DNA from: an uncultured archaeon
Lineage (GTDB): Archaea > Iainarchaeota > Iainarchaeia > Iainarchaeales > DATDZZ01
Assembly: GCA_964373795.1 (NCBI GenBank)
Contig: CAYJVY010000018.1
Location: forward strand, 1-11,793
Reading direction: 5' to 3'
DNA length: 11,793 nucleotides
The translations under genes were made by a program, and so were the position numbers. The notes beneath the pieces were generated by a model. That model had not been told where the DNA came from, searched no databases, and saw only the letters and a list, made by a program, of their open reading frames with translations. Below are positions 1 through 6,401 of the stretch, one piece after another (the first letter of the stretch is position 1; every line of letters begins with the position of its first letter).

Positions 1-204
1 GGGCATTGCGCTTGCCGCGCGAGACTACAGCTGAAGGCCGACGTAGGCATCGCGCTCGCAGGCGTGACCACGACTGAATGCCCATACAGGCAGTCGCGCT
101 TACCGGGTTTCGCCCTTGCCGGGCGATCGACACGTCAGGCGTCTCGCATCTGCCTGGCGCCTCGTACTCGCCAGACGCCTCGTACTCGCCGGACGTGACG
201 GCGG
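1..204. repeat. GC-rich mosaic repeat island A, truncated by the left window edge
   Basis: GC-rich block ends abruptly at 204 against AT-rich DNA. Positions 1-37 are the exact reverse complement of 6257-6293 in island C. It contains ctgaaggccgacgt (31-44), also present in island B. It has a tandem 18-nt repeat, gcctcgtactcgcc[a/g]gac, at 159-176 and 177-194, and a hairpin cgccc-ttgcc-gggcg at 111-125. Confidence 0.8.
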
Positions 205-212
205 TTTTAAAA
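205..212 (+). promoter_or_regulatory. TATA-like box (ttttaaaa) about 27 nt upstream of the ATG at 236; probably a leaderless transcript
   Basis: The A/T octamer directly abuts the end of island A. There is no Shine-Dalgarno-like GGTG between it and the ATG. The spacing matches the other genes in the window. Confidence 0.35.
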
Positions 213-235
213 TTGTTTTTGTTTGAAATTAGTGT

Positions 236-3968: not shown

Positions 3969-3975
3969 ATTTAAA
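3969..3975 (-). promoter_or_regulatory. TATA-like box (tttaaat on the minus strand) for the PAC2-like gene
   Basis: It directly abuts the left edge of island B and lies about 30 nt upstream of the minus-strand ATG at 3942. Confidence 0.35.
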
Positions 3976-4066
3976 CCCGCGCGCAAGGTTCAGTCCTTGA
4001 AGCGCCGAGCAGCCGGCGAGGCTGAAGGCCGACGTCAGCCCCCGTGCTCGCGGGACGCAACCGCGT
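3976..4066. repeat. GC-rich mosaic repeat island B
   Basis: 66 of 90 bases are G/C by hand count (3976-4065), against 11 of 60 in the flank 3901-3960. Positions 3984-4026 match the reverse complement of 6303-6345 at 42 of 43 positions. It contains the hairpin cagcc-ggcga-ggctg (4010-4024) and the palindrome ggccgacgtcagcc (4027-4040). Confidence 0.85.
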
Positions 4067-5231: not shown

Positions 5232-6170
5232 ATGGTTTTAGATCAACTGCCTGAAGCAGCATCAAACTTTGTTAATGCAGCTTCAACAAATTTATCTGAA
5301 TTGTTTCCATTCTTTTTAGTAGTAATATTTATTCTCCTTGTTTTATTCTTGTTTTACAAAATTTTGTCTTTAATTATTTTTAGAGCATTAAAAGTTGTTG
5401 CAGCTGAAAAAGATCAACAGCTTTTCATGAGTATTTGGAGTTTTTTATACTATTTTATTGCATTTAGTTTTCTGTTTCTAGCTTTTTCCGGATCGTTTAC
5501 TGGATTAGGGATTGGAATAGGATTATTTACTGCTGCTTTGGGATGGGCTTTGCAAAAACCAATTACTGGAATAGCTGCTTGGCTGTTAATTATTTTTAGA
5601 AAGCCATTCAAAATAGGTGACAGAGTAATAATTGGAGGAAAAAAAGGAGACATTGTTGACTTGAATTTGTTTTACATTGTATTAAATGAAGTTGGAGGCG
5701 GAGGAACACTTGAAGGAGAAGAAAGAAGTCAAAGAAGAATTTTAATTCCAAACTACAAAGTATTCGATGAAGACATTGTTAATTATTCTCTTGTAAGTAA
5801 TTTAGTTTTAGACTCAGTTGAAGTATTAATTACTTATGAATCAAATTTAAAGCAAGCAAAAAAAATTTTGCTTGACACAGCTGAATCCATTACTCAAAAA
5901 TTTATTTTTAATACTCAAACAACCCCATATGTAAGAGCTTCATTTAAGGATTCAGGGGTTTTACTGAGTTTAAAATATTTAGTTACTGTAGAATTAAAGT
6001 CTCAAATAAAGTCAATGATTACTGAAGAAATTTTTGAAAAAATTAATAAAAGAAAAGATGTAGAAATAGCTTACCCTCATTTAGAAGTAGTCTATAAAGG
6101 ACAAACAAAACGTCGCCGTTCAGCTTGCGAAGCTGAGTCGAAAGCCGGCGAAGCTGAGTCGCTCATGTGA
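5232..6170 (+). CDS. MscS-family mechanosensitive ion channel
   Basis: N-terminal transmembrane helices are followed by ALQKPITGIAAWLLIIFRKPFKIGDRVIIGGKKGDIVDLNLFYIVL, the MscS pore-helix and beta-domain signature. The last 19 codons and the stop codon are encoded by island C. Confidence 0.8.
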   Translation: MVLDQLPEAASNFVNAASTNLSELFPFFLVVIFILLVLFLFYKILSLIIFRALKVVAAEKDQQLFMSIWSFLYYFIAFSFLFLAFSGSFTGLGIGIGLFTAALGWALQKPITGIAAWLLIIFRKPFKIGDRVIIGGKKGDIVDLNLFYIVLNEVGGGGTLEGEERSQRRILIPNYKVFDEDIVNYSLVSNLVLDSVEVLITYESNLKQAKKILLDTAESITQKFIFNTQTTPYVRASFKDSGVLLSLKYLVTVELKSQIKSMITEEIFEKINKRKDVEIAYPHLEVVYKGQTKRRRSACEAESKAGEAESLM

Positions 6171-6369
6171 GTGGCCAATATTGGTATTCAGCTTCAAAGG
6201 CTTAAGGTTTCGCGCCTTGCGACGTTACACCCGTCGAGCACGAGGGGTCACGTGACCCTTCAGCTGTAGTCTCGCGCGGCAAGCGCAATGCCCACGTGAG
6301 CATTCAGCCTCGCCGGCTGCTCGGCGCTTCAAGGGCTGAACCTTGTGCGGGCGTGACAGCGCGTAACGG
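6111..6369. repeat. GC-rich mosaic repeat island C, a composite with inverted arms
   Basis: It shares a 37-nt exact block with island A (6257-6293), a 43-nt block with island B (6303-6345) and a 33-nt block with island D (6232-6264). Its left arm (6119-6170) resembles the reverse complement of its right arm (about 6293-6340). It contains palindromes gggtcacgtgaccc (6245-6258), aatgcccacgtgagcatt (6287-6304) and ccaatattgg (6175-6184). Confidence 0.85.
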
Positions 6370-6377
6370 TTTTATAA
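6370..6377 (+). promoter_or_regulatory. TATA-like box (ttttataa) for priS
   Basis: It directly abuts the right edge of island C and lies about 28 nt upstream of the ATG at 6402. Confidence 0.35.
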
Positions 6378-6401
6378 CCTTTTTTTTAAAGAAGTTATTT
6401 A

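Follow-up and report, generated by a model that had tools for sequence, protein, structure and literature searches.

The gene for an MscS-type channel in this DPANN-type archaeon takes its last 19 codons and its stop codon from a repeat element, a reading that is well supported by comparison of the DNA with other copies in the genome and of the protein with its orthologues. The element belongs to a genome-wide family of non-coding, lineage-specific, GC-rich mosaic hairpin repeats. The island in which the gene ends (island C) is likely to consist of two opposed, probably nested, non-coding copies of this family, of which the reverse copy gave the channel its stop codon and a tail that is probably tolerated.

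The window analysed is the whole of contig C18 (11 793 nucleotides), one of the 28 contigs of a 1.29 Mb genome with 30.5% GC that is 95.8% complete. The names of homologues indicate DPANN-type archaea, e.g. Woesearchaeota and Diapherotrites. Four GC-rich islands (A–D) break the AT-rich window (Table 1). The aIF2-alpha and PCNA genes are also near the channel gene and are convergent to each other, with island D between them. A tRNA scan of the window gave no tRNA. The AT-rich spacer between MscS and PriS (32 nt), with its TTTATAA and its T8 run, resembles a promoter region and may serve as one. Positions 6371–6414 and 9449–9492 form a direct repeat (D10; 75% over 44 nt) that lies upstream of PriS and aIF2-alpha, reaches into both starts and contains TTTATA/TTCATA, a T-run and then TTTAATGAAT; it is probably a common promoter and start context. 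Elsewhere in the window a perfect 31-nt direct repeat, TTTTATTCAGGCTTGGAATTAAAAACGTTTT, was seen at 933–963 and 1761–1791, 828 nt apart, with a second repeat (85%) upstream of it at 895–928 and 1832–1865.

Table 1. Positions of the features discussed (window numbering unless a contig is given).
Feature	Position	Strand	Basis or remark
Island A, family copy	1–217	-	Truncated by contig end
Island B, family copy	3975–4060	-	Divergent PAC2/PriL spacer; limits approximate
PriL	4126–5187		Gene 5' of the MscS-type channel
MscS-type channel ORF	5232–6170	+	312 aa; TGA at 6168–6170
MscS conserved body, 293 codons, 29% GC	5232–6110	+	Pfam MS_channel_2nd; includes final beta-barrel strand motif IAYPHLEVVYK
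Island C	6111–6369		259 nt
Island-encoded tail RRRSACEAESKAGEAESLM and TGA	6111–6170	+	Translation, family alignment, unrelated orthologue tails
Conserved terminal S-E module, consensus CAGCCTCGCCGGCTGAACGGCG	6114–6135	-	Faces outwards into MscS; genome pattern map, 45 S-E modules
Two tandem S hairpin units	6121–6161	-	Starts 6121 and 6142, 21 nt apart; hold the EAES-encoding repeat
Degenerate P2-type palindrome GCTCATGTGAG with the TGA, then degenerate hairpin module CCAATATTGG	6161–6184	-	Pairwise alignments
Putative decayed S-like and K-like modules, lower-GC centre	6186–6219	+	By-eye comparison with family copies; no BLAST match
Forward core copy T-P1-Q-P2-S-E'-R	6218–6350	+	Source of right inverted arm; BLAST, module map, alignment
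Putative GGGCGTGAC-type fragment	6346–6369	-	Like far end of reverse copies (C11, C3, C4 ends); module map and end comparison
AT-rich 32-nt spacer 5' of PriS	6371–6401	+	TATA-like TTTATAA 6371–6377; T8 run 6380–6387
PriS, DNA primase small subunit	6402–7628	+	3' neighbour of MscS; Pfam DNA_primase_S
Island D, family copy	10285–10434	+	Convergent aIF2-alpha/PCNA spacer; E end 2 nt from PCNA stop; limits approximate
Gene ending in family copy	C1:5999–6313		Tail TPSSRRG, then stop
Gene ending in family copy	C1:131037–131690		Tail QFSRRG, then stop

The channel was assigned with Pfam (PF00924/MS_channel_2nd, E = 3.7e-12), and its 312-residue translation ends ...VVYKGQTK followed by RRRSACEAESKAGEAESLM and the stop. 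An earlier note, made from the letters of this DNA, had the AT-rich frame run straight into the island at 6111; base composition agrees, with 29% GC up to 6110 and 61% in the island that follows (60% over 6111–6170). The coordinates of that note proved right to within a few bases throughout. In an alignment with Escherichia coli MscS, query residues 280–290 correspond to residues 270–279 of the 286-residue protein, the last beta strand of the cytoplasmic vestibule, and the alignment extends to residue 279–286 of 286 at query residue 290–298. The MscS fold is complete before base 6111, because this alignment covers the last beta strand upstream. The orthologue alignment that the note had proposed as a check was also run. 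In 11 orthologues (23–48% identical) homology ends in the junction region, just past AYPHxE(v/i)(v/l)(f/y)K and a few residues; their tails of 4–25 residues are unrelated to one another and to RRRSACEAESKAGEAESLM. An EAES-type tail in an island-free orthologue was found in none of 528 homologues.

The DNA of the tail gave a matching result. The 57 nt from 6114 to 6170, TGA included, align to family copies (C5:56970, C4:39185, C11:43165 and C1:6285) with scores of up to 88, compared with 20.7 ± 3.9 for shuffled sequences, and the claim that the last 19 codons and the TGA are island sequence was thereby upheld. The motif EAES occurs twice in the tail because a 12-nt direct repeat, GAAGCTGAGTCG, at 6129–6140 recurs at 6150–6161, 21 nt or seven codons further on, so that the duplication is repeat-encoded as had been proposed. 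Near 6160 island C carries a 1-nt insertion (GAGTCGCTCA compared with GAGTGCTCA in the best-matching family copies); the TGA of the palindromic module therefore falls in the MscS frame and the tail is 18–19 codons long. According to the frame analysis, the equivalent frame in canonical copies stays open for 47–68 codons, and the tail would run for about 30 codons more without the insertion. Selection for a short tail may lie behind the insertion, or chance. Two further genes of the genome end 6–7 codons within family copies, MscS having the longest element-derived tail of the three.

These observations also bear on the proposal of an ancestral or functional coding tail whose likeness to the island is secondary. 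The frame is open, and the indel that shortens the tail is a possible hint of length selection; however, the same DNA occurs about 30 times at non-coding sites in both orientations, the tail is present in no orthologue and the step from 29 to 60% GC falls exactly at the junction. We give this proposal almost no credence.

Clustering of all GC-rich islands of the genome linked 39, about 30 of them with clear homology among themselves. The family islands have 60–70% GC in the 30.5% GC genome and are mosaics of a few hairpin modules in a polar order, (K)-S-T-P1-Q-P2-S-(S)n-E, at times followed by R-E. The commonest module is the S unit, CAGCCTCGCCGGCTG, a hairpin with a 5-bp stem that occurs 81 times in 36 islands (three mismatches or fewer allowed; the reversed genome gave two as a control); P1, P2 and T are the other palindromic modules. 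The four bases 5' of S are CACT, GACT, CCTT or GCTT, and those 3' of it AACG, CGAC or CTCG. Tandem S units are spaced by 21–22 nt (23 adjacent pairs genome-wide). One end of the family is sharp, consisting of ...CAGCCTCGCCGGCTG(AA/CT)CGGCG with AT-rich flank immediately after it. Of 26 multi-unit islands, 24 are unidirectional; the two mixed ones, island C and the island at C16:14965, are mergers of copies. Four contig breaks (the starts of C18, C5 and C8 and the end of C7) fall in family copies, as is expected for real repeats. The end of C7 and the start of C8 are both built of tandem 21-nt S units, TTTCAATTCAGCCTCGCCGGC; these contigs may therefore join via a longer S array that the assembler did not resolve.

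Island C had been described in the earlier note as a composite with inverted arms, and the alignments confirm it. Positions 6118–6183 match the reverse complement of 6286–6341 at 48 of 69 aligned columns, with a local score of 49 compared with 17.6 ± 3.5 for shuffled sequences (maximum 39, n = 1000). The less GC-rich centre is likewise as described, 6171–6230 having 48% GC and the palindrome CCAATATTGG at 6175–6184; 6231–6369 has 66% GC. Read as modules, the island is E< S< S< P2< (6114–6172), the decayed centre, T> P1 Q> P2 S> E'> R> and the GGGCGTGAC-type piece. Its forward core is 89–94% identical to copies on C2, C3, C4, C1 and C5. The arms are inverted because the S, E and P2 modules are shared by two oppositely oriented copies, and since only two of the 26 multi-unit islands mix orientations, the apparent terminal inverted repeats of island C come from two opposed copies. 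A younger forward copy is probably nested in, or abuts, an older reverse copy, the nesting parse of 6161–6217 and 6346–6369 being drawn from weak similarity.

The note had likened the 259-bp block to a single MITE with imperfect terminal inverted repeats, that is, an element transposing as a unit. Inverted arms of about 55–65 nt at both ends and the ability to fold back are what such an element would have. On the other side, a BLAST search of the genome gave no second copy of the 259-bp composite; its left and right parts recur separately, and the arrangement is therefore not a MITE mobile as a unit. The family is moreover polar, the S-E terminus standing at one end of a copy only, and its multi-unit islands are with two exceptions unidirectional. 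No target-site duplication was visible by eye, and the genome holds no insertion sequence with matching ends that could be its parent. The single-MITE interpretation was dropped as very improbable.

A fold check was run on the block, which folds back on itself as predicted in the note. The RNA has a minimum free energy of -124.3 kcal/mol (z = -4.75; none of 200 shuffles was as good) and the DNA a z of -2.80. The fold-back arises incidentally, from the S, E and P2 modules that the two copies share in opposite orientation. It might alternatively be taken for the reason why the island is there, namely as a selected RNA-level 3' stabiliser, terminator or insulator of the MscS transcript that shields the PriS promoter, the overlap with coding sequence being incidental. 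The very stable fold is in keeping with this, as are the T8 run after the island, the seven E-termini genome-wide that overlap a stop codon or come within 5 nt of one, and the established stabilization of upstream mRNA by bacterial REPs (reviewed in PMC3733652). The distribution of the copies is not. Copies in tandem, divergent and convergent spacers number 16:6:4, indistinguishable from the genome background of 779:185:200, and on this match of spacer classes the idea that copies favour the 3' over the 5' ends of genes was rejected. In tandem spacers the copies are not biased towards either orientation with respect to transcription (7 versus 8), and there are copies in divergent promoter spacers and one within a tRNA intron. 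Eight core copies covary weakly, at two of 34 pairs, both in an ACGT-centred palindrome, with a term of +0.13, the divergence between these copies being too small for more. A scan of 5900–6600 for bacterial-type promoters and terminators was empty, and the only Rfam match in the whole window, chrB-a, was below threshold (30.1 versus 43.9 bits, E = 0.063). A selected RNA element at this site is thus considered unlikely.

No family copy was found inside a gene body in the genome survey. One copy of 85 nt (E< S< P1 T< S<) with sharp borders lies in the AT-rich 116-nt intron of tRNA-Ser(CGA) (C8:43926–44133), which is at the canonical intron position; it is harmless because it is spliced out, and it shows that the family includes a discrete insertable unit. 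The other long tRNA introns of the genome have 21–40% GC and AT-rich tandem repeats. Further copies abut tRNA-Pro and tRNA-His, and another lies between tRNA-Ala and the 16S gene; about three main islands were observed near tRNA genes where 1.6 were expected, a rough count that is not significant, and the association with tRNA genes is suggestive only. The spacer mix, the orientations, the absence from gene bodies and the tRNA intron together are what selfish or neutral insertions would leave after filtering by selection, and argue against a dedicated role as terminator or stabilizer.

The copy in a spliced tRNA intron recalls another possibility, that the block in MscS is itself excised from the transcript in the manner of an intron (the archaeal splicing endonuclease could be the enzyme), leaving the mature MscS mRNA with another C-terminus. 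In-silico deletion of 256 or 259 nt brings the MscS frame to a TAA at 6400–6402 that overlaps the PriS ATG, and deletion of 255 or 258 nt brings it to a stop at 6375. Each of these outcomes is one of three frames, however, so the TAA is reached by chance in one of three. The splice sites in the tRNA belong to the tRNA, the family copy there being cargo only, and most copies lie between genes, where their removal would serve no purpose. Removal of the block from the mRNA is accordingly regarded as extremely improbable.

The interpretation as two opposed family copies was set against related genomes. Identity to the nearest MscS homologue is 47%, and its protein cluster is a singleton. No island-free allele (empty site) of the MscS end was found among the collected proteins, species genomes and metagenome contigs; the GTDB order sample contained no close relative, and a 24-mer taken exactly from the 3' end of MscS matched no metagenome contig, so that no strain variant was found there either. 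MscS directly follows PriL in this genome (G000), in G023 and in G013. In G023 the order PriL-MscS-x-PriS is kept, with one gene between MscS and PriS, and MscS ends there in an ordinary TAA with no island. In G001, the only genome of the same family, PriL overlaps PriS (ATGA; locus L049, G001:C99) and there is no MscS. From its presence and absence after PriL, MscS has seemingly been lost from, or inserted into, the primase operon. From composition, homology to the family and the point where orthology ends, we infer that an insertion event lies behind the present end of MscS.

The 22-nt S-E terminus at 6114–6135 is identical in G001, although PriS is only 54–56% identical between the two genera and the G001 islands (L031–L036) are otherwise built of different hairpin modules. 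In another family of the order, islands of two genomes end in a variant terminus, CAGCCCCGCCGGCTGCTCGGCG. Islands of G089 and G095 (L023, L024 and L027) likewise have different hairpin modules, yet a near-identical 22-nt S-E module; many hairpin modules in the islands of these two genomes and of G001 have GATC-containing loops. Four genomes have the module (G000, G001, G089 and G095), and roughly 190 are without it. In searches with the terminal 22-mer, the species genomes gave the same-family MAG only, apart from one chance match in an actinobacterium with 67% GC; the metagenomes gave one contig, near-identical to a G001 locus, and the viral contigs two chance matches in GC-rich phages. The conservation of the 22-mer suggests constraint as a recognition site, or horizontal spread. 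As a tentative proposal, one that we think rather less probable than its negation, the terminus may be the recognition site of a mobilizing or binding factor unrelated to transposases, in which case DPANN archaea would have their own class of REP-like mobile hairpins.

Candidates for a mobilizing enzyme were sought in the genome. For Y1/RAYT transposases, the genome (95.8% complete) had no PF01797 match at E <= 0.01; the control matched in six of 14 genomes. IS110 is absent from the genome. There is a single TnpB ORF locus (C1:138961–140118) and a single DDE insertion sequence (on C27). Both were rejected as parents of the family, their ends sharing nothing with it. A by-eye check of sharply bounded copies (the tRNA-Ser intron copy and other islands) gave neither a target-site duplication nor a target motif. 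The genome has two tyrosine recombinases. A tyrosine-recombinase ORF of 421 residues (C8:50791–51246) stands about 700 nt from a tRNA-Ser (C8:49993–50078) and may mark an integrated element.

The sequence of events that we favour is as follows. The older reverse copy would sit with its conserved terminal module directly on MscS codon 294–295, and the native stop would therefore be gone or displaced. Translation is predicted to continue through the two S units of 21 nt each, which encode EAES twice, and to stop at the TGA in the palindromic module. The protein most likely tolerates the predicted tail of 19 residues as a disordered extension on the underside of the cytoplasmic vestibule, where it is presumably harmless. 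The family itself would spread as a non-autonomous, hairpin-dependent element, REP-like or like the GC clusters of mitochondria, with a putative trans-acting factor recognizing the S-E terminus. If so, a selfish repeat has in this archaeon remade the end of a housekeeping membrane protein and left its fold untouched. For annotation, C-terminal tails in these genomes, and N-terminal extensions from starts inside islands, may be repeat-derived, and contig breaks fall at the repeats. Only the conserved terminal module, for which no transposase was recognized, could open up something new. Were an own REP-like class of DPANN archaea to be real, mobile hairpins would remodel gene ends, tRNA introns and promoters.

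A literature search gave no published description of this family; REP-like repeats are on record for archaea in a generic survey, though not for DPANN (PMC12306157). Among known systems, the family resembles the bacterial REP/BIME elements, including the GTAG- and CGTC-tagged ones, which are short GC-rich imperfect palindromes in tens of copies, form mosaics, are mostly intergenic and occasionally overlap ORF ends (PMC3733652). It has the imperfect palindromes of 20–40 nt in many extragenic copies that characterize REP/BIME units (81 S units in 36 islands). It differs in its archaeal host, in being GC-rich within a 30% GC genome and in having no RAYT gene in this genome, although CGTC-type REPs are likewise without a dedicated transposase (PMC3733652). 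The REP tags were not seen at S units: GTAG does not occur, and CGTC occurs only as part of the T module. REP units alternate in orientation, whereas the family units are in tandem in one orientation (21–22 nt period; 24 of 26 islands). The PATEs and REPINs derived from IS200/IS605 are similarly polar, with hairpins near both ends and without terminal inverted repeats or target duplication; unlike them, the family has no Y1 transposase in its genome, and the ends of the TnpB element are dissimilar.

The palindromic GC clusters of yeast mitochondria are also GC-rich hairpins in an AT-rich genome that merge and shuffle into composites, and they are non-autonomous and fast-changing (PMC4478555). 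Islands of 60–70% GC with variable module order and number, and the mergers at island C and C16:14965, correspond to this description. The yeast clusters differ in belonging to a eukaryote organelle, in having single units of 30–50 nt and other sequences, and in the target-site duplications reported for them (PMC4478555).

For the coding overlap, the earlier note had pointed to the Rickettsia palindromic elements, which are palindromic repeats translated within host proteins. The likeness holds in so far as the tail is repeat-encoded. It fails in that Rickettsia elements are inserted in frame inside genes and read through, and are not GC-rich islands, whereas here the extreme 3' end is replaced or extended by an element that caps the gene and gives the stop; no family copy is an in-frame insertion read through on both sides within a gene body. 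Closer precedents are the QMITEs of Coxiella and the REPs at ORF ends (PMC5896051, PMC3733652). About 10% of intragenic REPs are at ORF ends (PMC3733652). QMITE1 and QMITE2 of Coxiella burnetii are small non-coding repeats that, like the present family, supply C-terminal residues (33 at most) and a stop codon; they overlap gene 3' ends, all insertions in functional genes being at 3' ends, and EnhC gains a 33-residue tail (PMC5896051). Unlike this family, they are bacterial and classical MITE-like elements with inverted ends, and the sequences are unrelated (PMC5896051). The capture of gene ends by repeats, known from Rickettsia, Coxiella and enterobacteria, is thus extended to DPANN archaea; since events of this kind occur in bacteria, the present case is real but fairly ordinary.
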